Shown: positions 52,262 to 62,311, counted from the first letter of the stretch. The stretch is DNA of 64,000 bases from Minisyncoccota bacterium (GCA_040905385.1 JBBDRP010000002.1:595403-659402); one strand, 5' to 3'. Numbers and translations: made by a program. Notes: a model not told the origin generated them from the sequence alone.

Positions 52262-52847
52262 AGCTCGACTGCTTCGGTGTTATATAAGAAAAGAGTGTGC
52301 GAGGTAATAGACAAAGGCGCCGAGTGAACCCCACCAGCCGATGATGGAGATAATGAAGCTCGCTATAATCTTGTGCTGAAGTGGTTGCGGAAGCAGTTCT
52401 GTATCCTTTCCTTTCTTCTCTTGTTTGATGAGATACGGACTTACTACAAAAGACAGAAATAGACCGTTGAGTATCAGCACTACCGCGGCGATGGCATGCG
52501 TATACACCATCCACGAGACCGGCTGCGTACTGTAGAAAATTACGCCGCCAATAATACCCAAGGTGATACCAAGCCAAATGAGCGGCTTAGTTACCTTGTG
52601 CGCCCGGATGGTCGCTTTCGTCCAGTAACCGGACGTACGTGCTAAAAATCCATGCACATCAATCACCGTTACCGCTCCAAGGCCGATGATATAGCCGGCG
52701 AGAAGTATAAAGAGACCGATAAATTCTAAAGAAATATCTAGTGTCATGATTTTTTATTATAGCATTTCTTAAACTACAGCCCGCCGGTCTCCAGCCGGCG
52801 AGATACGCAAGCTGGATTTAGATACAGAGGATAGGGTGTTTTAAGGC
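52224..52847. repeat. 41-bp direct repeats (52224-52264 and 52807-52847) flanking a 540-bp insert that carries gene 52280..52747
   Basis: gaaagcttgatttagatacagaggatagggtgttttaaagct vs gcaagctggatttagatacagaggatagggtgttttaaggct; the first copy is the 3' end of the pseudouridine synthase gene. Confidence 0.65.
52280..52747 (-). CDS. Membrane protein (4-5 TM) carried on the insert between the direct repeats
   Basis: 155 aa, hydrophobic. Confidence 0.4.
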   Translation of the reverse strand: MTLDISLEFIGLFILLAGYIIGLGAVTVIDVHGFLARTSGYWTKATIRAHKVTKPLIWLGITLGIIGGVIFYSTQPVSWMVYTHAIAAVVLILNGLFLSFVVSPYLIKQEKKGKDTELLPQPLQHKIIASFIISIIGWWGSLGAFVYYLAHSFLI

Positions 52848-52905: not shown

Positions 52906-54366
52906 TTATAAGGCTGAAGATGTGAAAATATCGCCCGATGGCAAGAACTCCAACCGATACTCGCGACCAAGTCCTCGAAACTCTTCGGATTCTTCATGAA
53001 TCAAAAGCGAGCTAAAATCCTCTTCCCACTTTACGCCGTCACAGCCCGAATCAAACGGAAATCCATTCAGCACAATCTGTCGCTTCTCTTGTGGGTTCAA
53101 AAGCAGTACCTCACAAGCCTCGCCGTCTTCAATCGTGTTAGCCACTGCCAACCATGGCTTGCCCTCGGTAACATCAGCCCCAAGTTCGCTGGTTGTCATC
53201 GGGTTATACTCACCGCCGTTGAAACGATCATGGGGTACAGTGATCGGCTGTATCTTCTGTTCTTCCGTATCATAAACCCGCATATTTTTACTATAAATAT
53301 TAACTAGCAGAGCGTGCTCATTATCAAGCCAGCGGATCATTCGGCCGGGGTTAGAAAACGTCTTGGCTTCTCTGGTAGTAGCATCATAAACAAATAAGTC
53401 TTCGCACAAACCATCTATAGACAGCTGGCTAGCATACTTTGTGTTATCTGGGGAAAATGTCCTTGGCGCACTGAAGTCATATGTGCAGACATTACTACTT
53501 TCAGCCAAAACCTCCCCAGAACTGTCACGAAATTGAACATACGTTTCGCCAGTTACTGAATTATCATATATGAAAAATTCACCATCAACGTCTGCTGATT
53601 TTGGCACCACAGTTAAGCCAGATGTACCCGGCCGTTGATTATTTCGGGACGCTGAACTTCCGCCATTGAAATGATACAGACGGCTTGCAGTGCCGGTAAA
53701 CTGCACATTGAAAATATCCGAATGCTCTGACACATCATACGTTACCGACGTTATCTCACCTTCGGCCGCTCGACGTTCTATACCACCCTGAATAATGGCC
53801 GGTGCACTTAGAAGATATCCCAAAAGCGGCCATATCATTATCGCCAGCACAGCTGCTAGCAACGAATGCATCACACGACTCTTGCTCAAGTACCGATACA
53901 CTGGAAGCAGCCACCAAGAGATGAGCCAGGACATCCCACCAGCAGTAATCATAGCAAAAAATGGAATGATGAAGAGAGCTCCTGCGAGACCACTTTGCGG
54001 AAATAGTGTGGCCGTAATGTCATTTCCGACCAAGCTAAAGAAATGACCGTAAAAAAGTAGAAAAGAACCAATTGTCATCAGTGCAGCTAGGCAGATAAAG
54101 AATCGTGTGTAACCATTCTTCCATCGCCGGCGAACATAAATAGCAATTGCAGAAACCACCACACCTATAGCTAGCAAAATCAACCCGGTAGTGAAGGCAT
54201 CTTCCAGCCCAACAAGATTCTCTACGAAAAATGGAAAGCCAAAGTAAGGTACGACAAAGGCTCCGATCAAAAAGATACCCACTACAATAGTGCGAACGAT
54301 AGGAAAATTAGCCTTGTCCGATTGATTGGCTAATTCCGGAGCCTGTTGTGCATCTGGTGTATTCAT
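52906..54366 (-). CDS. Large membrane protein: N-terminal polytopic domain + C-terminal beta-propeller-like periplasmic domain
   Basis: About 10 TM then a TolB/WD40-like low-complexity pattern (YDVSEHSDIFNVQF...VYDTEEQKIQPI...). Confidence 0.4.
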   Translation of the reverse strand: MNTPDAQQAPELANQSDKANFPIVRTIVVGIFLIGAFVVPYFGFPFFVENLVGLEDAFTTGLILLAIGVVVSAIAIYVRRRWKNGYTRFFICLAALMTIGSFLLFYGHFFSLVGNDITATLFPQSGLAGALFIIPFFAMITAGGMSWLISWWLLPVYRYLSKSRVMHSLLAAVLAIMIWPLLGYLLSAPAIIQGGIERRAAEGEITSVTYDVSEHSDIFNVQFTGTASRLYHFNGGSSASRNNQRPGTSGLTVVPKSADVDGEFFIYDNSVTGETYVQFRDSSGEVLAESSNVCTYDFSAPRTFSPDNTKYASQLSIDGLCEDLFVYDATTREAKTFSNPGRMIRWLDNEHALLVNIYSKNMRVYDTEEQKIQPITVPHDRFNGGEYNPMTTSELGADVTEGKPWLAVANTIEDGEACEVLLLNPQEKRQIVLNGFPFDSGCDGVKWEEDFSSLLIHEESEEFRGLGREYRLEFLPSGDIFTSSAL

Positions 54367-54425: not shown

Positions 54426-55043
54426 TTATTTATCTTGAGACAATTCTCTAAATTCAGCAATAATTTCATCCGGACCTTCCTCGCGAGCAATCTCCAGAGC
54501 ACGGAAATAATCGGTTGCCTCTTTATAAATTGTATCCTTAACATCAATATCAGGAGCCAAGTCACCGAGTATCCGTATCAAAAGCGCATAAATAATTATG
54601 TGATTCTGGGTCAACTTTGATTCATCTACCCATTTCTCGCGTACCTTACTCCAGTAATTTCCTACGCAGGGTACAGCTTCTCTGTCACCGGCAAACCGAT
54701 GTAGAAGCTCATGAATTACCAACTCCGTACGCTTGTCACGACCTTGCCCTTCCAGTGACATCACCGGCAGGATAAGTGGTGTCGACATAGCTCCCAATCC
54801 ACCACCAATCACAAAAACCTCAATATCACGTGGGTACGTAATACCAGTAATATCAATTATCTTTTTTATAACGGAGTCGTCTTTATTTATTTCAGACCAC
54901 AACTCTCGCCAAATCTGCACTTCCTTATTTACTCTTTTCTTACTTGGGTACCCTTCAAGATCTTTCCGCTTGAAAAGCTGCCGCCGATTACGATCCAGCG
55001 GATAGGCATACTTGAATACAACTTGTGGGATACGTTCTGACAT
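54426..55043 (-). CDS. Hypothetical protein with an HEXXH motif (possible metallopeptidase-like)
   Basis: TELVIHELLHRF. Confidence 0.35.
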   Translation of the reverse strand: MSERIPQVVFKYAYPLDRNRRQLFKRKDLEGYPSKKRVNKEVQIWRELWSEINKDDSVIKKIIDITGITYPRDIEVFVIGGGLGAMSTPLILPVMSLEGQGRDKRTELVIHELLHRFAGDREAVPCVGNYWSKVREKWVDESKLTQNHIIIYALLIRILGDLAPDIDVKDTIYKEATDYFRALEIAREEGPDEIIAEFRELSQDK

Positions 55044-55073: not shown

Positions 55074-55108
55074 TGTTATATAACAGATTTTTTGGTGTTA
55101 TATAACAA
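55074..55108. promoter_or_regulatory. Two tandem copies of the 12-bp palindrome TGTTATATAACA (operator-like) upstream of gene 54426..55043
   Basis: 55074-55085 and 55097-55108; a third copy at 57285-57296 and a near-copy at 52278-52289. Confidence 0.5.
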
Positions 55109-55123
55109 AATTTACGTATTATC

Positions 55124-55363
55124 TTAATCATCATATTTTGCTTCTGCCCAGGCTTTTATTTTATTGACCGTATCAAACCCATCACCATCAAGGTTATCAA
55201 CGAGATTTTTCAGCGTGATGGTGTACTCCATGCCGTCAGCCGTAAAATAAAATTTGTTTTTCGAATACTGAAACTGAACTCCGGCTTCAGCCCCGCTTAA
55301 ATTCTTCTCACGTGCTTCATCGTACATTTCCAGCAACGCCTCGGCCTTCTGTTTGTTATACAT
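55124..55363 (-). CDS. Small hypothetical protein
   Basis: 79 aa. Confidence 0.35.
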   Translation of the reverse strand: MYNKQKAEALLEMYDEAREKNLSGAEAGVQFQYSKNKFYFTADGMEYTITLKNLVDNLDGDGFDTVNKIKAWAEAKYDD

Positions 55364-55405: not shown

Positions 55406-55927
55406 TTACATGTCAGAGCCGTCTTCAGAGACAGCTGCGCGTATACTCTCTGAGATACTGGCTACATCAAAGCTTCCGTGATTTTCAATACGTAGTAGCG
55501 GTAGACCTACCTCATCGAGAATCCGCTCAACCTCCTCATCACGGGCGATACGGTCTTTGCGACTGTGGCTTTTGTCATCTAACTCAATCACCAAACGTGG
55601 TGAAAGGTAATCTTTGTCACATAGTACAAAATCAACTGACTTACGATCAATATGAGCTAACGCGCCCTGCCAGTTTTGACCTTTCACTTTATGATCAATA
55701 ATTGTAGATAGATGTACCTGCGGAAAAATAACATAGTCATCCGCCACTGCATCCTGAAGCACATCGTAAAAATCATGCTCCGCTCGAGTCATGAAGTATT
55801 TCTTGCGCTGATAGTTATAGGATGCCACCTCTTTCTCTTTTCTCTTGCCTCCGTTCTCAATATACTGCTTCGCATATCCAATTAAAATAATAACCGCAAC
55901 GAGAACAAATATTGTAATTATATCCAT
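55406..55927 (-). CDS. DUF2726-like (restriction endonuclease-fold) protein with N-terminal TM
   Basis: FMTRAEHDFYDVLQDAVADDYVIFPQVHLSTI...IDRKSVDFVLCDKDYLSPRLVIELDDKSH...GLPLLRI matches the DUF2726 pattern from memory. Confidence 0.55.
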   Translation of the reverse strand: MDIITIFVLVAVIILIGYAKQYIENGGKRKEKEVASYNYQRKKYFMTRAEHDFYDVLQDAVADDYVIFPQVHLSTIIDHKVKGQNWQGALAHIDRKSVDFVLCDKDYLSPRLVIELDDKSHSRKDRIARDEEVERILDEVGLPLLRIENHGSFDVASISESIRAAVSEDGSDM

Positions 55928-56037
55928 GATTTAAGTTATGAACGTAACTAAATCATACCATCATTCTGAAGGCTTTCAGTGGCTAATACCTTGATATACG
56001 AATCTCTTGCCCTTATTTTAGGGCTAATATTAGGCTC

Positions 56038-56069
56038 GCTAAATAACTCAACCGGTTGAGTTATTTAAC
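56038..56069. repeat. Second copy of the GCTAAATAACTCA...TGAGTTATTTA hairpin (compare 35015-35046)
   Basis: GCTAAATAACTCAA-ccgg-TTGAGTTATTTAAC, overlapping the stop of 56061..56360. Confidence 0.5.
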
Positions 56070-56360
56070 CTCGTAGTGGACAGAGCGGCCAGAGGTGCCA
56101 ATCTGCTCGATTAGGTCCTCGGCTTCGAGCGCGTCCAAATATCGGGTCGCCGTCGCGTGTGATAAATCCAAAAGTGCCTCGACATCATCATTAGTGATAG
56201 TGTCATGATCATCCAGGTACGCGACCAGCCGCTCGATATTATCTTTCTTCTCTGTCTGGCTGCGCTGGATCAATGACGCATCTTCGCTGGCACCGTTAAC
56301 CTGCAAATATATGAGCGCACCACCAACCCCGACAATTATTCCCATGAGAAAGTAAAGCAT
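56061..56360 (-). CDS. Membrane-anchored winged-helix DNA-binding protein
   Basis: N-terminal TM (YFLMGIIVGVGGALIYL) + C-terminal wHTH (TNDDVEALLDLSHATATRYLDALEAEDLIEQ). Confidence 0.5.
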   Translation of the reverse strand: MLYFLMGIIVGVGGALIYLQVNGASEDASLIQRSQTEKKDNIERLVAYLDDHDTITNDDVEALLDLSHATATRYLDALEAEDLIEQIGTSGRSVHYEVK

Positions 56361-56375
56361 AATAATTTTATTATA

Positions 56376-56867
56376 TCAGTTTAAAATATTCCGAAATGTT
56401 TCTAACATTTTAGCGGAGAAGTCAGTTCTATAAAATATGCTTCTTTCACCGTATCTCCACCCTACCTTGTTGTCATTTCTCTCTAGTATTGGCAAAGCAA
56501 AGAAGCCGTATTTATAGTTATCATTCATCTTTTCATGTTTAGCAAGAGGTATCCTAACTTCTCTTATTTCTTGATAAAGAGAGTTGTATTCATCTTTATT
56601 GCCGAATGTCTTTAGTATTCGTAAGATCTCATTAGCATCTACTATCCATAGATAAGAATGATATACCAAATTATTTAACTTATATGGATCCGACTGAAAA
56701 ACATTTAGAGATGCATCTTGCTCACGGTGAATTAAGTCAGCATCAAATCGTCCTAAATTCTGAATTCGTGCCATTATATGAGGATCTGGAGAAGATGACT
56801 GATTAAAATCAGCGAACTCATGAGACAATTCTATCCAATATTTTTCTATTGTTTTTGGTTTATTCAT
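56376..56867 (-). CDS. Hypothetical protein co-transcribed with the TM-wHTH gene (15-nt gap)
   Basis: 163 aa, no recognised motif. Confidence 0.4.
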   Translation of the reverse strand: MNKPKTIEKYWIELSHEFADFNQSSSPDPHIMARIQNLGRFDADLIHREQDASLNVFQSDPYKLNNLVYHSYLWIVDANEILRILKTFGNKDEYNSLYQEIREVRIPLAKHEKMNDNYKYGFFALPILERNDNKVGWRYGERSIFYRTDFSAKMLETFRNILN

Positions 56868-56965
56868 TAAATTCTGTATGTGTCCAGCTTTTTATTTTAC
56901 TAACTTCATCGTAACCATCTCCCTCTAGCCAGTTTATCACCACAAACTCATGTTACTATTTACAT

Positions 56966-57172
56966 ATGGAAACTTCTCAAACCTTAAGCAAGTGGCTGAT
57001 TCGCGTCTACGTGCTGGCTATTCTGGTTATAGTAGTGGGCAATATTCTTGAGGGCGCCGTCTTTACGATCATCATTACGCTACTGGGTATACTGATAATC
57101 ACCCAGACATTCCTGCTGCCGAAGCGTAAAACTGAGCCGAGCAAAGAGAGCGAAGAAACAAAACACCACTAA
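56966..57172 (+). CDS. Small membrane protein
   Basis: 68 aa, 2 TM. Confidence 0.3.
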   Translation: METSQTLSKWLIRVYVLAILVIVVGNILEGAVFTIIITLLGILIITQTFLLPKRKTEPSKESEETKHH

Positions 57173-57346
57173 GCAACTAAACGAGTGGTGAAATGAAGAT
57201 CTCAACTGAGCGACACTCGATGTTGCACAGCTTCGAGAGATATCCCTAGGCTTTGGCCCAGGGATCTTTTAGCACCTCCTCGTCTGTTATATAACAAAAC
57301 TTTTTCTTAAGTGATCTCCTTTAAATATTAGAAACTTTGAGACTTA

Positions 57347-57811
57347 CTAAGCATTTACCCTGATTTTTTCTGCTAATGTAGCTAATTTATCATCAGAAAC
57401 TTTATCTGAGTCATGAGAAGATACGTATCCTGGATACCTTTCGAAGTACGTATTTATATCAGACTTTATTTCTCGCCATTCTTCCATATCAGCTGTTCCG
57501 TGCATTGGTACTAACTTGGCATGAAGATAATCAACGCCGAAACCCTCAAATATCATCCCAACTCTACCGACATCATCTAAACCATCTTCCAGTACTCGAG
57601 CCACCTTTTTAGCCGCCTTAATGAGAGAGAATAAAGGTTCATCATCAACCTCAGCAAAATAACTAGGTTGATACTGCTTCGGTATTAATACCGTAAACCC
57701 TTCCGTGTTTGGAAAAGGAGTAAGGAATGCTAGGTGATCCTCGTCCTCCCAAACCTTATAACAAGGTGCCTCTCCTTTTACTATTTTATGAAAAACTGTT
57801 TCTTGACTCAT
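57347..57811 (-). CDS. HIT-like (histidine triad superfamily) protein
   Basis: ETVFHKIVKGEAPCYKVWEDEDHLAFLTPFP...IPK and a C-terminal His cluster (DYLHAKLVPMHG); start placed at MSQ because the TAAAAT -10 box sits immediately upstream. Confidence 0.45.
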   Translation of the reverse strand: MSQETVFHKIVKGEAPCYKVWEDEDHLAFLTPFPNTEGFTVLIPKQYQPSYFAEVDDEPLFSLIKAAKKVARVLEDGLDDVGRVGMIFEGFGVDYLHAKLVPMHGTADMEEWREIKSDINTYFERYPGYVSSHDSDKVSDDKLATLAEKIRVNA

Positions 57812-57881
57812 AATTATTTTTTCCATTTTACCATCCACAGCCACTACAGAGAAAGATTGGCTTAGAAGCCTGTCATATGCA

Positions 57882-58121
57882 TTATAGAAGACCTTGAAAC
57901 TGACCGAGATAGCTATCAAGAAACATCGGTATCAGGATGACGGCCGCGATCAGCGGTATGACAACCATGGCGATGCTAACAATCATTGAAATCAGGAAGT
58001 ACTTGCGGGTCTTTTCGACTGATTGGTAAATATCATCAAGCCGCCGTGCATTCGCGGCAATCTGCTCGCGAACACTCCCGGGGCTTGGTGGGGTTTCGTT
58101 TGATTGATGCGCTTCATTCAT
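57882..58121 (-). CDS. Small membrane protein
   Basis: 79 aa, 1-2 TM; leaderless start 8 nt after a TAAAAT box. Confidence 0.35.
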   Translation of the reverse strand: MNEAHQSNETPPSPGSVREQIAANARRLDDIYQSVEKTRKYFLISMIVSIAMVVIPLIAAVILIPMFLDSYLGQFQGLL

Positions 58122-58187
58122 ATACCTATTTTACCATCTACATCAGCCTCCAATCTATTCAGTGATTTCTGGGTATTAGATATAAAT

Positions 58188-58541
58188 CTATTGGTTATTA
58201 AATTCTCTGAATTTAGCAGCATCAGCATCCCGACCCAAAAGCAACAGCGCCTGATTAAACAGCTTCTGGTCTGACAACACCGCTGGAGTCATACCGTTAA
58301 TCTTATCATCTACAGAATTCTTTTCCCTAAGATAGGAGTAGGTTTTTACGAGCCTGTCTGTGGCTTCGATGTCAGCATTCTCTGCCATTGAATTAGCCTG
58401 AGAAAGACTAGCTCGAGAAAACTCTAGCTCTGGGTTTACATCAGCCAGCTCTTCTATGAGCTCAACTGCTTCTGGAGCGAGCTCGCCATTCGACTTCTGA
58501 GGAGACTCTTCTCCGTTTGTAGGTTCTTCAAAATTTATCAT
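58188..58541 (-). CDS. Hypothetical protein
   Basis: 117 aa, acidic N-terminus. Confidence 0.35.
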   Translation of the reverse strand: MINFEEPTNGEESPQKSNGELAPEAVELIEELADVNPELEFSRASLSQANSMAENADIEATDRLVKTYSYLREKNSVDDKINGMTPAVLSDQKLFNQALLLLGRDADAAKFREFNNQ

Positions 58542-58610
58542 ATTGCTTAATTCTTATTAATTAACCTCTCTATTTCCTCTATAATATCTTTATTCCCTAT
58601 ACATTATATC

Positions 58611-58690
58611 TTACCATCCACACAGCACGTAAAGAAGTGCGACTGTGGGCGCAAGGCACACAGCCGCCGGGAATGTTGGCCAAAGAACAT
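58611..58690 (-). promoter_or_regulatory. Intergenic cassette copy 1: GC-rich imperfect palindrome (58637-58668) + CTTCTTT + GTGTGGATGGTAAGATATAAT promoter box
   Basis: About 85% identical over ~77 bp to copy 3 (59975-60046). Confidence 0.55.
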
Positions 58691-58774
58691 CCACCACCCG
58701 CACCCCTGTTTTGCAAGAAGCACGTCCTTGCAAATACATCACCCAAAAAGAAGCTGGACGGTGCGCATAGACCG

Positions 58775-59290
58775 CTACACTTCCACTATTTCCAGATCAC
58801 TCGTATCAATACTACCTTTGTAAAGAATGTGCGGTACGCGGACAAACAATAACGGTCGCTCTCCTTTTTGTTTCATTTCTTGATAATACTCCTTGGTTGC
58901 TTCGGGGAGCTGCGCATACTGCTCTATACTGTCTGGATTATACTGCGTGAAATTCTTTTTGTTCATCTTCAGCGCAGTGTCTTTGTATTGATAGAGATAT
59001 ACAACCGTCTTCTCCATATCAAGAGAATGTGGATTGATTACAAACGCTTTGAAATTTCTCTCTGTACTTAAGGCTTCCTTGATGTCTCTTGGATGCACAG
59101 CAGTAAGGTGAAGCACGTCATTCCAAAGGCAGTTTAAGAAAGGAATACGCTGTCGCATCACCGCTTCTCTCCCTTCGTATTTAGATTTTTCTACTTCGTA
59201 TCTATCTGGATACACATTCTTAAGCTCATTCAGAGGATAGAGGGCCTCTCCCTGCATATTTCTTGGAACAAAATGATAGAGATTAGACAT
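58775..59290 (-). CDS. Hypothetical protein
   Basis: 171 aa; leaderless-type start 7 nt after a TAATAT box. Confidence 0.4.
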   Translation of the reverse strand: MSNLYHFVPRNMQGEALYPLNELKNVYPDRYEVEKSKYEGREAVMRQRIPFLNCLWNDVLHLTAVHPRDIKEALSTERNFKAFVINPHSLDMEKTVVYLYQYKDTALKMNKKNFTQYNPDSIEQYAQLPEATKEYYQEMKQKGERPLLFVRVPHILYKGSIDTSDLEIVEV

Positions 59291-59297
59291 GCCCTTA

Positions 59298-59360
59298 TAT
59301 TACCACCCATAAAGAAGGCGGCTGTGTGCACAAAGCACACAGCCGCCAGGTATTTTTACC
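59298..59360 (-). promoter_or_regulatory. Intergenic cassette copy 2: perfect 13-bp inverted repeat GGCGGCTGTGTGC-acaaa-GCACACAGCCGCC (59317-59347) + TGGTAATAT extended -10 box
   Basis: The palindrome sits at the -35 position relative to the box; the ATG at 59290 follows 7 nt after the box. Confidence 0.55.
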
Positions 59361-59412
59361 GACTTTACTTTACAAAGTTACTGGATTATAATAGCTATGT
59401 ATCAAGACAAAA

Positions 59413-59447
59413 AGGGATCCGAACGGCCCCGTGCCTAAGGAGCCCTT
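59413..59447 (-). terminator. Intrinsic terminator of the NYN gene (hairpin + T5 on the transcribed strand)
   Basis: AAGGGATCC...GGAGCCCTT with an A5 run at 59408-59412 on the plus strand. Confidence 0.45.
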
Positions 59448-59449
59448 TT

Positions 59450-59962
59450 TTATTGCCTATACTCTATCTTTTTTCTAACATCCTTCTTATCAAGATGATC
59501 AAAGTACTCACTACCAAGACTTTTATACAAAGACGAAGAAAATTCAAGATTGGGAAAAAGAATCTTAGCTAATTCGTCACGTTTAATCAGAAAATCAACA
59601 AGCTTCTTATAATCTCCGTCACCAGATACAAGGATAATATTATCAAACTCAACGCCTTGAATGATTTTCTTCATGACTGAGAAGATGAGGTCTGAATCAA
59701 CATTTCCCTTCTTCTTGCCTTTGAGTGCAGACGAATGCTCACGAAACGACAAAATAAAGCCCGCCCGCTGCAGATTGTCGTACAAATCCTGCTCGCTTTC
59801 AGAAACATAGCCCATAAAATAGTAAGCCTCCTGGACATCATATTTATCCTTTAGATACGTGCGAAACTTACCGTAGTCAATCTTCCAGCCTTTCTCCTTT
59901 ACACCAAGATACAAGTTCTGACCGTCTATAAAAGCTAAATTGTTAGTATTTTTGTCGCTCAT
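59450..59962 (-). CDS. NYN-domain (PIN-like, LabA-like) protein
   Basis: LAFIDGQNLY...ILVSGDGDY pattern of NYN/LabA nucleases. Confidence 0.7.
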   Translation of the reverse strand: MSDKNTNNLAFIDGQNLYLGVKEKGWKIDYGKFRTYLKDKYDVQEAYYFMGYVSESEQDLYDNLQRAGFILSFREHSSALKGKKKGNVDSDLIFSVMKKIIQGVEFDNIILVSGDGDYKKLVDFLIKRDELAKILFPNLEFSSSLYKSLGSEYFDHLDKKDVRKKIEYRQ

Positions 59963-59974
59963 GTTGGTTAAATA

Positions 59975-60046
59975 TTACCATCCACACCTTCCGAAAAGAA
60001 GGCGGCTGTGGGCGCAAGGCACACAGCCGCCAAGAATTGGCCTAAA
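59975..60046 (-). promoter_or_regulatory. Intergenic cassette copy 3: GGCGGCTGTGGGCGC-aag-GCACACAGCCGCC (60000-60030) + CTTCTTTTCGG + GTGTGGATGGTAATAT
   Basis: Begins about 10 nt after the stop of 60056..60823 and ends 13 nt before the ATG of the NYN gene. Confidence 0.55.
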
Positions 60047-60055
60047 GCGACAGCA

Positions 60056-60823
60056 TCAGACACCTTCCGCCTTCATAAGTGAAAACGCGCCGTACAGACC
60101 CGACTGATCACCCAGCTTCGTCAACGCGGCTTTTATATCAAGTTTGCTTAAAGTCTCTTCGAAAGCAAGGCGAGGACACAAAGAAATGGCGACACCACCA
60201 CCAACTACCATAGTAGTAAAACTATAGTGTCGTGCGAGTCCTGGGACACACTGCGATACATCCTCTAAAACGACATCCCATTCGGCATTGGTGAGATCTT
60301 CGGCTAATTTACCGAATCGTGATTCAAGACTTTTCCCACCAATTTTTTCTTCGAGGTTATGCAAAGGTTGTTTATCCTCTGGTTGACTCACCGAAGCAAC
60401 CCCGCTCTGGCAAGTTACTTGTGCAAAACCAACACCAGTACCCCACGTAAGATAGACAAAATCCATCATCGCGTGCTCACCAAAATAGGCTTCTCCGAAT
60501 GCACCCATTTCTGCATCATTTCTTATATATACCGGGCAGTCGAACGTTTCGTCAAGCGTCGTTTGCAGCGGTTTATTCACCCAATCAGGCAGGTTTGTGG
60601 AACGAATGAGTTCACCGTCATCATTCACGCTACCAGGTACACCGATAGCAATTGCGTCAACCGACATACTGAGAGATTTAATTGTAGATACCATTTCCTC
60701 GATCCCAGTCGCAAAATCAAGTGGAGTTGGAAAGGTAACAGCGTCCTTAAAAGTGATCTTTTCAAGTGACGAAGCGGTAGCAATACGAGTATGTGTGCCA
60801 CCCATATCAATTCCAATAAACAT
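60056..60823 (-). CDS. ROK/BadF-type sugar kinase (glucokinase-like)
   Basis: MFIGIDMGGTHTRIA...VYLTWGTGVGFAQV ROK-like motifs. Confidence 0.55.
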   Translation of the reverse strand: MFIGIDMGGTHTRIATASSLEKITFKDAVTFPTPLDFATGIEEMVSTIKSLSMSVDAIAIGVPGSVNDDGELIRSTNLPDWVNKPLQTTLDETFDCPVYIRNDAEMGAFGEAYFGEHAMMDFVYLTWGTGVGFAQVTCQSGVASVSQPEDKQPLHNLEEKIGGKSLESRFGKLAEDLTNAEWDVVLEDVSQCVPGLARHYSFTTMVVGGGVAISLCPRLAFEETLSKLDIKAALTKLGDQSGLYGAFSLMKAEGV

Positions 60824-61003
60824 AAAATCAATGTATCACGGTGTAGTATGTTCTTCAAATAAATACGGAGTAGATGAAGCATCCTTGCAGGCGGTATTTG
60901 TCCTTAAAACCACATTTGCTAATTACGTTATAATAAAAGTCCAACGAGCCCGGTCGAAAACTGGCCGGGAGATCATTATTACTATAACTAACCAATACAT
61001 ACC

Positions 61004-61372
61004 ATGAATAAAAATGACAAAATTTTAATTGTCTTAATGGCTGATACCTCTACACATGAAAATCAGGGCCGAGCGTTGCACGCGCTCCTGTTTGCAAAGC
61101 AGGCACATGAAGCCGGAAGTGATGTAAAGCTTATTTTTGATGGCGGTGGTGTCGAATGGGCTAAGCAGCTTCCTGAGCATGAAAAATTGTCTGATCTATA
61201 CCAAGAACTAAAAGAGGAAGACATCATCGGTGGTGCGTGCGAGTTCTGTTCCGGAGCCTTCGGGGTGAAGGATGAGCTGGAGCTAGCTGACGCCAACCTT
61301 CTCGATGAGGCAGATGGTCATCCGAATATCGGCAAACGTGTGGCCAACGGCTGGACCCCGATAATTCTGTAG
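61004..61372 (+). CDS. DsrE/DsrF-like family protein
   Basis: KILIVLMADTSTHENQGRALHALLFAKQAHEAGSDVKLIFDGGGV. Confidence 0.45.
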   Translation: MNKNDKILIVLMADTSTHENQGRALHALLFAKQAHEAGSDVKLIFDGGGVEWAKQLPEHEKLSDLYQELKEEDIIGGACEFCSGAFGVKDELELADANLLDEADGHPNIGKRVANGWTPIIL

Positions 61373-61420
61373 CAGCCGTCCATTTTTAAAAATTTCCGTC
61401 CGGCTTATTACCCCTCTCCG

Positions 61421-61453
61421 TCTTGCAAGGATAATATCCTTGCAAGACTTTTT
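61421..61453 (+). terminator. Intrinsic terminator: perfect 12-bp stem TCTTGCAAGGAT-aat-ATCCTTGCAAGA + T5
   Basis: Palindrome 61421-61447 followed by CTTTTT. Confidence 0.65.
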
Positions 61454-61474
61454 AAACATTAAAATAGGCAGGCC

Positions 61475-62020
61475 TTACAGCGCCACCAGAGCGTTCGCGT
61501 AAATCTCCAGATCAGCCTGGGTGTACAGGACGAATCGCACCGTCTCGATATGCTGTAGCTCGGGAAGCGTCGCTGCCACCTGTTGGAGGCTGACAGTGGC
61601 GGCTTCTTCTGTCGGGTAGCCGAAGGCGCCGGTCGAGATGGCCGGAAAGGCCAGGCTGGTGATCTCATGCTCGTCGGCCAGACGAAGCGCATTATCAAAG
61701 CAGTCGGCCAGAAGCTGATCAGCCGGCTCGTTGATTCCGTAGCGCGGGCCCAGACAGTGTAGAACATACTCATTCGGAAGATTGAAGGCCGGCGTGATAA
61801 CACACTCGCCCACCGCGATGGGCGCAAACGTGCGGCCGGCTTTCGCCAGCTTGGGCCCGGCGGCCCGGTGTAGTGCGCCGGCCACCCCACCACCCGGCGC
61901 CAGGTGCTTGTTGGCGGCGTTAACCACCGCCTGCATATCATCTTGGGAGGCAATATCACCCTGTACACACTCGACGGTGACACCGGCAATCTGCTTTTGT
62001 ATCTTATCAGGATTGATCAT
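61475..62020 (-). CDS. Macro-domain protein (ADP-ribose binding/O-acetyl-ADP-ribose deacetylase-like)
   Basis: VECVQGDIASQDDMQAVVNAANKHLAPGGGVAGALHRAAG macro signature. Confidence 0.75.
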   Translation of the reverse strand: MINPDKIQKQIAGVTVECVQGDIASQDDMQAVVNAANKHLAPGGGVAGALHRAAGPKLAKAGRTFAPIAVGECVITPAFNLPNEYVLHCLGPRYGINEPADQLLADCFDNALRLADEHEITSLAFPAISTGAFGYPTEEAATVSLQQVAATLPELQHIETVRFVLYTQADLEIYANALVAL

Positions 62021-62080: not shown

Positions 62081-62311
62081 TTAACAGGAACATGTATCGT
62101 CATCATCAGTTGTGGCAGTTGGACATTTTTGATCAGCGTATTCGCAGACAACACAGCAATTACTGCTTTCCTTTGGTACTTCTATCGTCTCATCGCATTG
62201 CTCGCACTGATGAAAAGCAAGGCAGCGATCGGTTGGAACGTCCACTGACTGCTCGGCTGAGCAGTGTGGACAGGTTAATGTTGCTATTTTTTTCGTTTTT
62301 TTGTCTGTCAT
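62081..62311 (-). CDS. Small Cys-rich zinc-binding protein
   Basis: 76 aa with 11 Cys (CPHC, CEQC, CCVVCEY, CSC). Confidence 0.4.
   Translation of the reverse strand: MTDKKTKKIATLTCPHCSAEQSVDVPTDRCLAFHQCEQCDETIEVPKESSNCCVVCEYADQKCPTATTDDDDTCSC

Follow-up and report, generated by a model that had tools for sequence, protein, structure and literature searches.

The ADP-ribosyltransferase (ART) fold is found in the defence toxin DarT (DUF4433), which requires R51 and E160 (review PMC9967889) and is paired in DarTG with a macrodomain antitoxin. DUF2726 is a restriction endonuclease (REase)-fold domain that often lies near mobile elements and is in some cases fused to AbiJ-NTD3 (PMC3424549, PMC3710099). 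Genes for a predicted ART-fold protein (here g171), a DUF2726 protein, and a macrodomain protein are located at positions 55406-62020 of a 64,000-nucleotide stretch of DNA from a Minisyncoccota bacterium (GCA_040905385.1, JBBDRP010000002.1:595403-659402), which is referred to as the window. An earlier note on this DNA described the range as an accessory island of nuclease and nucleotide-signalling genes, all on the minus strand and possibly forming a novel defence, stress, or toxin-antitoxin-like system. The range is probably a variable accessory hotspot of independent, insulated single-gene cassettes situated beside a core sugar-phosphate cluster, and not one system.

The range appears to split into two parts (Table 1). 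Part (a) would be the tail of a conserved PGDH-PGL-...-ROK cluster, into which a zinc-ribbon open reading frame (ORF), a MacroD-type macrodomain gene, and a DsrE-like gene seem to have been inserted. Part (b) is a low-GC mosaic run of short genes, each apparently transcribed singly, which encode a NYN protein, ART-fold g171, g117, g79b, a variant HIT protein, g163 with a winged helix-turn-helix (wHTH) protein, and a DUF2726 protein with a transmembrane (TM) anchor. The ROK kinase gene was missing from the earlier gene list. As PGDH, PGL, and ROK are adjacent in four candidate phyla radiation (CPR) loci (L012, L002, L006, and L003), ROK is a core gene, and it divides the proposed island into two unrelated stretches. 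Neither are all genes on the minus strand, as the DsrE-like gene and a small hydrophobic ORF lie on the opposite one.

Terminator-promoter cassettes

An individual extended -10 box, GGATGGTAAnAT, precedes almost every gene of part (b). All four exact copies of the box GATGGTAANAT in the 64-kb window, together with two one-mismatch copies, are minus-strand sites within 55.95-59.98 kb. The distance from box to ATG is 6-9 nt for NYN, g171, and g79b, and 13 nt for HIT when measured from the preferred ATG, a value that depends on which start is the true one. Since the boxes sit so near the ATG, the mRNAs of these four genes may be leaderless or carry very short leaders. The boxes of g117 and DUF2726 are further upstream of the start, that of DUF2726 being GATGGTATGAT at 55952-55962.

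A GC-rich hairpin (GGCGGCTGTGTGC...GCACACAGCCGCC followed by TTCTTT) occurs three times, and three transcription units end in copies of it. Directly after each hairpin follows the conserved box GTGGATGGTAAnAT, which holds the extended -10 element (TGn-TAAnAT; TGGTAAnAT). Close matches to the 13-mer core GGCGGCTGTGTGC number five at 58.6-60.0 kb, where they make up the three hairpins; 1.1 would be expected for the entire window. The best copy (copy 2 in Table 1) was flagged as terminator-like, with -32.5 kcal/mol for the 61-nt stretch folded and a z-score of -6.3. A further hairpin, with a perfect 14-bp stem, spans the wHTH stop codon (56040-56067). Box and hairpin are limited to 55.9-60.0 kb, where they exceed chance. 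The repeated regulatory cassettes proposed earlier are therefore real and local; they stop short of the macrodomain gene, which had been counted among the genes embedded in them. Because of the individual boxes and the hairpins, the genes from NYN to DUF2726 seem to form separate transcription units, with the exception of g163-wHTH.

The same kind of module is present in a relative. In locus L087, g117 and g79b were recovered with 75% identity each beside a g171 homologue, and a homologous terminator-promoter module occurs twice, flanking the same genes. The g117-g79b spacer of the window aligns as an L087 cassette from which the hairpin has been deleted; judged from this alignment, the modules are shown to be related by descent. 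The cassettes would therefore have been passed on and rearranged along with the regulatory modules that belong to them. Gene order differs between the two genomes, being g117-g79b-g171 in L087 and g171-g117-g79b in the window. The g117-g79b pair has thus changed sides relative to g171, for which recombination among the repeated modules is a plausible cause; such recombination may shuffle the cassettes.

Composition and variability

Against a GC background of 0.498 ± 0.044 (28 long window ORFs), the genes of the range vary from 0.33 to 0.60, with z-scores of -1.3 to -3.9 for most of them. The pattern is a mosaic: g163 (0.33) and wHTH (0.50) are separated by just 15 nt, while NYN has a GC content of 0.372, g171 of 0.41, and the macrodomain gene of 0.601. 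Gene neighbourhoods are equally variable. Relatives of g171 with 75-81% identity have different neighbours, namely LigA-GatCA in L082, an HKD/PLD protein with a SNF2 helicase in L087 (PADLOC HKD+Snf2; DrmD, 3e-37), and a Type IIG restriction-modification (RM) enzyme in L088 (1e-58 to 1e-68). The homologues in L083-L086 have other neighbours again. Atypical composition thus coincides with loss of synteny in relatives, as in a genomic island, and the data support an accessory, variable character of the 54-60 kb part. Stable synteny, which would have spoken against an island, was not seen among these relatives, and defence or mobile genes flank the g171 homologues in L087 and L088 and the DUF2726 homologues in L167 and L168; the island idea therefore withstands the refuting condition set in the earlier note.

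Three genes just outside the range, at 52906-54366 (486 aa, several hydrophobic segments), 54426-55043 (205 aa), and 55124-55363 (79 aa), have lowered GC and no Pfam or PADLOC match. Because of this shared low GC, the patch of accessory genes probably reaches as far as about 52.9 kb.

No tRNA was found in the window, and no integrase or defence gene match in the island and its flanks. Apart from a trivial match inside the HIT gene, the DNA does not resemble phages or plasmids. Together with the lack of g171 relatives on IMG/VR viral contigs, these results led to the rejection of an origin as prophage or plasmid. Rfam families are absent from 53-63 kb. A PADLOC-DB v2 search with DUF2726, HIT, the macrodomain protein, g171, g163, g117, g79b, and the flanks returned nothing, and matches were limited to generic wHTH models (best 3e-7, SoFic C-terminal wHTH) and a weak NYN match (3.9e-5). 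The locus resembles defence islands and variable hotspots in its low mosaic GC, in the loss of synteny at 75-81% identity, and in the RM or HKD+SNF2 genes found at the equivalent place in relatives. It differs from them in that the window lacks an integrase, a tRNA, a mobile-element boundary, and any defence system that could be recognised. Of the proposed defence or accessory island, the accessory part therefore stands, while no protein fits a known defence model.

The ART-fold protein g171

The protein g171 has 90 relatives in the protein database with 36-81% identity, none of which contains a Pfam domain; the few of these with a taxon label belong to Patescibacteria. The family has a further 233 relatives in JGI metagenomes. 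The conserved core of the family comprises Y5-H6, K37-Y38-x-G-R41, W56-N57-D58-V-L-H61, and H154, and mean column identity is 46%. AlphaFold models the protein with very high confidence (pLDDT 95.8, pTM 0.90) in an ART fold resembling that of DarT; Foldseek ranks the same ART-fold proteins at the top, with DarT at E 0.22 and a TM-score of 0.40, below significance. Sequence searches do not reach this far. ART Pfam models gave no match to 52 family members even at E ≤ 5, and at E ≤ 10 the family profile found neither DarT nor any other sequence in the PDB. On the strength of the model, kinship to DarT appears to be at the level of fold, and g171 is best described as a predicted ART-fold family that is unclassified, lacks a Pfam model, and is annotated just as "hypothetical" or "group-specific protein".

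The invariant R41 is a candidate for the catalytic arginine. The C-terminal half contains no invariant glutamate that would equal E160 of DarT; acidic residues are conserved at D58 (100%) and E42 (81%). Because no conserved catalytic glutamate is seen, the chemistry of g171 would be unlike that of DarT. Conserved histidines on three strands (H6, H61, and H154) would place the protein nearer the H-H-h type of Tpt1 than the H-Y-E type. Tpt1/KptA and Arr are, like OspC3/CopC, among the ART-fold enzymes with which g171 can be compared. The OspC3/CopC arginine ADP-riboxanases are large secreted effectors, in contrast to g171, which has 171 residues and is cytoplasmic.

To survey the neighbourhoods of the family, all ORFs of the window were compared by tblastn with 85 loci encoding g171 relatives (548 kb). 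The macrodomain, NYN, DUF2726, and wHTH proteins were not recovered in any of them, and the g117-g79b pair was recovered solely in L087. The variant HIT gene lies directly upstream of the g171 homologue in L104 and L119; these are near-identical copies from one lineage, which makes them weak evidence for a HIT-g171 linkage. A Pfam census of 128 immediate neighbours at 76 distinct loci likewise contained no macrodomain, NYN, or DUF2726 gene. Its commonest entries were class-I S-adenosylmethionine (SAM) methyltransferases, with about 17, followed by small kinases, NUDIX, APH, HIT, and housekeeping genes. The methyltransferase gene shares 4 nt with the beginning of g171 in six loci (L093, L095, L097, L100, L101, and L109) and is 7 nt away in four others (L154, L156, L159, and L160). 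It also follows the copy on the Cytobacillus plasmid pBO1 (L175), which is annotated as 'group-specific protein'. The recurrent partner of g171 is thus a class-I SAM methyltransferase, while that of DarT is a macrodomain. Since the two genes are translationally coupled or adjacent in several lineages, one of them outside the CPR, the enzymes may form a two-enzyme modification pathway.

A full-length homologue with 36% identity is encoded by Stenotrophomonas phage TS-12 (L174, 16532-17101 of the record), where it is a lone opposite-strand gene amid hypothetical phage genes. Taken as a whole, g171 may tentatively be regarded as a new ART-fold clade with a wide distribution in Patescibacteria and scattered members in Bacillaceae, on an alphaproteobacterial replicon, and in a phage. 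According to this proposal, which is held with considerable doubt, the clade has no macrodomain partner, lies next to a class-I SAM methyltransferase gene or is translationally coupled with it in several independent lineages, and performs an NAD+-dependent modification of nucleic acids or of small molecules (Arr-like) by non-DarT chemistry. Here it would be moving as a promoter-gene-terminator cassette in a defence-prone hotspot.

With a DarT-like fold and a macrodomain hydrolase within 2.2 kb, the locus could be imagined as a DarTG-like writer/eraser pair in which g171 ADP-ribosylates nucleic acid and the MacroD protein reverses the modification. The position of one g171 homologue between uvrA and uvrC, and of another beside ligA, would be in line with such a function. 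The idea is nevertheless very improbable and was rejected, being largely refuted by absent co-occurrence, as none of the 85 g171 homologues has a macrodomain gene within about 6 kb. In addition, NYN, ROK, and DsrE genes intervene between the two, which are not co-transcribed and have different GC contents (0.41 and 0.60), and the macrodomain is of the MacroD/YmdB type and not of the DarG type. The lack of a match to Pfam DarT or to DarT sequences in the PDB, and of an invariant glutamate where DarT needs E160, points in the same direction.

DUF2726 and NYN proteins

The DUF2726 protein has a full-length Pfam match of 108.6 bits against a cut-off of 24.7, in addition to weaker matches to DUF559 and MTES_1575. 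The hydrophobic or TM helix at its N-terminus (residues 1-19), which the earlier note had correctly recognised, is followed by a K/R-rich stretch that suggests a cytoplasmic position of the nuclease domain. Among 683 family matches, the best 120 show 50-66% identity and are 146-188 aa long. The family invariants D99, E115-x-D117, H121, R126, and R129-D130 are all present in the window protein, and mean column identity is 59%. The D...ExD...H signature is common to the window protein and the Vsr/DUF559/DUF2726 PD-(D/E)xK endonucleases. In contrast to Vsr-type enzymes, the window protein carries the N-terminal TM anchor and belongs to a compact, conserved subfamily of 165-185 aa found mostly in metagenome-assembled genomes (MAGs) of Patescibacteria.

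Homologues on three long contigs were examined for their neighbours, which differ in all three. In L167 the gene is located beside Type III-like Mod/Res genes and an rve integrase, in L168 beside a Type IIG-like enzyme and a serine recombinase, and in L169 it has no RM or recombinase neighbours. The DUF2726 protein, whose homologues are RM-adjacent in two of three contigs, is the most defence-like component of the range, though just three loci were examined.

The NYN protein, whose PIN-like domain was also identified correctly in the earlier note, aligns to 2qip with its Asp motifs kept (fiDgqN, nvDsD, and sGDGD). No phage homologue of it was found.

These observations bear on the proposal that the TM-anchored DUF2726 protein, NYN, g171, and possibly g117/g79b or MacroD are novel anti-phage or abortive-infection modules in a hotspot. 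In its favour can be cited the RM and recombinase genes next to two of three DUF2726 homologues, the known ties of DUF2726 to mobile elements and AbiJ-NTD3, and the HKD+SNF2 helicase or Type IIG RM enzyme that directly adjoins the g171 module in the closest relatives. The low, mosaic GC, the presence of DarT among ART-fold enzymes, and the phage-borne g171 homologue would also be in line with it. The proposal is still considered unlikely. PADLOC yields nothing past generic wHTH and NYN noise for the island proteins, and the neighbours of g171 at 76 loci, mostly small methyltransferases, kinases, NUDIX, and housekeeping genes, are not defence genes. No conserved partner is fit to serve as sensor or antitoxin, and nothing points to a toxin-antitoxin pair. 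Moreover, the g171 (46%) and DUF2726 (59%) families are unusually conserved, unlike fast-evolving defence genes, and no RM gene, integrase, or tRNA is nearby in the window.

HIT-fold protein and small proteins

The HIT protein aligns to solved HIT proteins with an E-value of 1e-11, and the N-terminal nucleotide-binding half is present. It deviates from the HIT-like hydrolase assumed earlier in its triad, which is Y-L-H-A-K instead of H-x-H-x-H, so that the central nucleophilic histidine alone is kept. The subfamily motif is D-[H/Y]-x-H-x-K-L-x-P-x-H-G-T, with lysine in place of the third histidine in all three sequences (the window protein, L104 5432-5938, and L119 794-1198). The overall alignment is thus shared with HINT/Hit-type proteins, whereas the triad [H/Y]-x-H-x-K and a C-terminal extension of about 50 aa differ.

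The wHTH protein matches several wHTH families with E-values of 1.6e-5 to 2e-3, all below the gathering score. Its membrane anchor (residues 1-19) and its position next to a 163-aa ORF, g163, which lies 15 nt upstream, agree with the earlier description. The status of g163 as a strict orphan was ruled out, as an exhaustive phmmer search revealed 52 remote relatives with common motifs; these have no match in Pfam or PADLOC. The genes of the nearest relatives are solitary, with housekeeping or small-hydrolase genes around them. A conserved two-gene module of g163 and wHTH was likewise ruled out by relatives without a wHTH partner and by GC contents 17 points apart, and the pairing is probably recent.

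HMM searches of the small proteins (Pfam, NCBIfam, PHROGs, and PADLOC) gave nothing useful, and g117 in particular is without a match in all four collections. The three proteins previously listed as small unknowns, g79b, g117, and g171, indeed have no family match, but g171 has a predicted ART fold.

Core cluster and macrodomain

The best relative of the flanking 6-phosphogluconate dehydrogenase (PGDH), at 57% identity, is from an uncultured Saccharibacteria MAG, followed by other Patescibacteria. The window accordingly belongs to the CPR/Patescibacteria. The zinc-ribbon ORF, the macrodomain gene, and the DsrE-like gene sit between PGL and ROK in the window. The macrodomain assignment of the earlier note was confirmed. 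The protein matches the NCBIfam O-acetyl-ADP-ribose deacetylase with 2.4e-48 and 163.8 bits, below the curated 200-bit cut-off; because equivalog scores stay below the cut-offs, it is not assigned to an exact equivalog. Its best solved relatives are MacroD-type macrodomains (1.6e-34), plus MacroD1/2 and YmdB, without DarG among them, and by sequence it is an ordinary MacroD/YmdB-type enzyme. It lies outside the cassette array, with ROK and DsrE between it and the rest.

A further idea, in line with the adjacent PGDH-PGL-ROK cluster, is a housekeeping cluster of the kind typical for CPR bacteria, devoted to housecleaning and salvage of nucleotides or NAD metabolites. Beside the sugar-phosphate genes, HIT, MacroD, NYN, g171, and the nuclease would then act on nucleotides and nucleic acids that the cell has scavenged. 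The g171 homologues in L084 and L104 lie within runs of NUDIX, HD (YfbR-like), HAD, ITPase-like, nucleoside deoxyribosyltransferase-like, HIT, and kinase genes, although the ITPase-like and deoxyribosyltransferase-like labels in L104 were read off sequences and do not come from a scan. Homologues of g163 occur near NUDIX, CYTH, and HIT genes, and Patescibacteria as a group show strong conservation of the g171 and DUF2726 families. Such a cluster is nonetheless quite improbable, given that positions are non-syntenic between relatives, that the mosaic low GC suggests acquisition, and that g117, g79b, and g163 have no or few relatives.

Other features

The coordinates of all features are compiled in Table 1. 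Between the convergent macrodomain and DsrE-like genes is a hairpin with a perfect 13-bp stem, GTCTTGCAAGGATAATATCCTTGCAAGAC (61420-61448), which is probably a bidirectional terminator. A perfect palindrome, (GTC)TGTTATATAACA(GAC), has three exact copies at 55074-55091, 55096-55113, and 57285-57302, against 0.18 expected, and a weaker copy at 52278-52289. Two of the exact copies are arranged in tandem just upstream of the -10 region of the 205-aa gene and the third is downstream of HIT; the palindrome looks like a putative operator for a dimeric regulator.

Table 1. Features of the 55406-62020 range and its immediate border, in window coordinates.
Feature	Position	Strand	Evidence
DUF2726 protein, 173 aa	55406-55927	-	Pfam E 2.3e-31
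Winged-helix (wHTH) protein, 99 aa	56061-56360	-	Weak multi-family wHTH matches
g163, 163 aa, helical-bundle protein, sparse unannotated family	56376-56867	-	ORF list
Small hydrophobic ORF, 68 aa, hydrophobic segment residues 27-45; real gene uncertain	56966-57172	+	ORF list
HIT-fold protein, variant subfamily	57347-57811	-	Pfam HIT E 1.9e-7, N-terminal part only
Promoter box GTGGATGGTAAAAT upstream of HIT	57825-57839	-	
g79b, 79 aa, C-terminal TM helix (residues 46-64)	57882-58121	-	No family match
Promoter box GTAGATGGTAAAAT, 6 nt before g79b ATG	58128-58142	-	
g117, acidic, 117 aa	58188-58541	-	No family match
Terminator-promoter cassette copy 1: hairpin 58639-58668, T-rich tail, box 58608-58622	58608-58668	-	
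g171, 171 aa, predicted unclassified ART-fold family (DarT/OspC3-like fold)	58775-59290	-	
Terminator-promoter cassette copy 2: 13-bp-stem hairpin 59317-59347, box GGTGGTAATAT 6 nt before g171 ATG	59297-59347	-	
NYN (PIN-like) protein, 170 aa	59450-59962	-	Pfam E 7.7e-16
Terminator-promoter cassette copy 3: hairpin 60001-60031 ends ROK transcript; box 59972-59986, 9 nt before NYN ATG	59972-60031	-	
ROK-family sugar kinase	60056-60823	-	Pfam ROK E 1.7e-25
DsrE-like protein	61004-61372	+	Pfam DsrE E 2.8e-7, above gathering score
MacroD/YmdB-type macrodomain (O-acetyl-ADP-ribose deacetylase-like)	61475-62020	-	Pfam Macro E 1.9e-37
Cys-rich ORF, 76 aa (CxxC ... CxxC ... CC..C), between PGL and Macro	62081-62311		Weak zinc-ribbon match

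Conclusion

A coherent defence or toxin-antitoxin system across the range is not supported, while the data support a region that is accessory and, in relatives, defence-prone. The domains listed in the earlier note co-occur nowhere else among the g171, g163, and DUF2726 loci examined, and no multi-gene combination recurs; g117-g79b travels with g171 in one relative only. The patch would have been built piecemeal within a variable hotspot, with every protein working alone and some possibly engaged in genetic conflict, not as a co-functioning unit. The TM-anchored DUF2726 protein may act as a DNA endonuclease tethered to the membrane, and NYN may be an RNase. A transferase that uses NAD+ is proposed for g171, while HIT may hydrolyse or transfer nucleotides by an altered chemistry.

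Several points weigh against a hotspot of independent cassettes. The common promoter box could mean co-regulation, and hence a functional regulon even though there is no operon. The ART fold, macrodomain, HIT, NYN, and nuclease all handle nucleotides, NAD, or nucleic acids, which is more coherence than random accessory genes would show. The nearest genomes in the comparison are distant (57% identity for PGDH, 75-81% for g171). The neighbourhood surveys covered homologues of g171, DUF2726, and g163 only, and the neighbour census was based on crude ORF calling.

The region as a whole adds little new, being a variable accessory patch in a reduced CPR genome, and two by-products are of value. The repeated terminator and extended -10 modules are a clean local example of insulated, apparently leaderless cassettes and suggest a route for their shuffling. 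The second is the g171 family, which, as judged from its predicted fold, offers a testable candidate for a new NAD+-dependent modifying enzyme in little-understood organisms.

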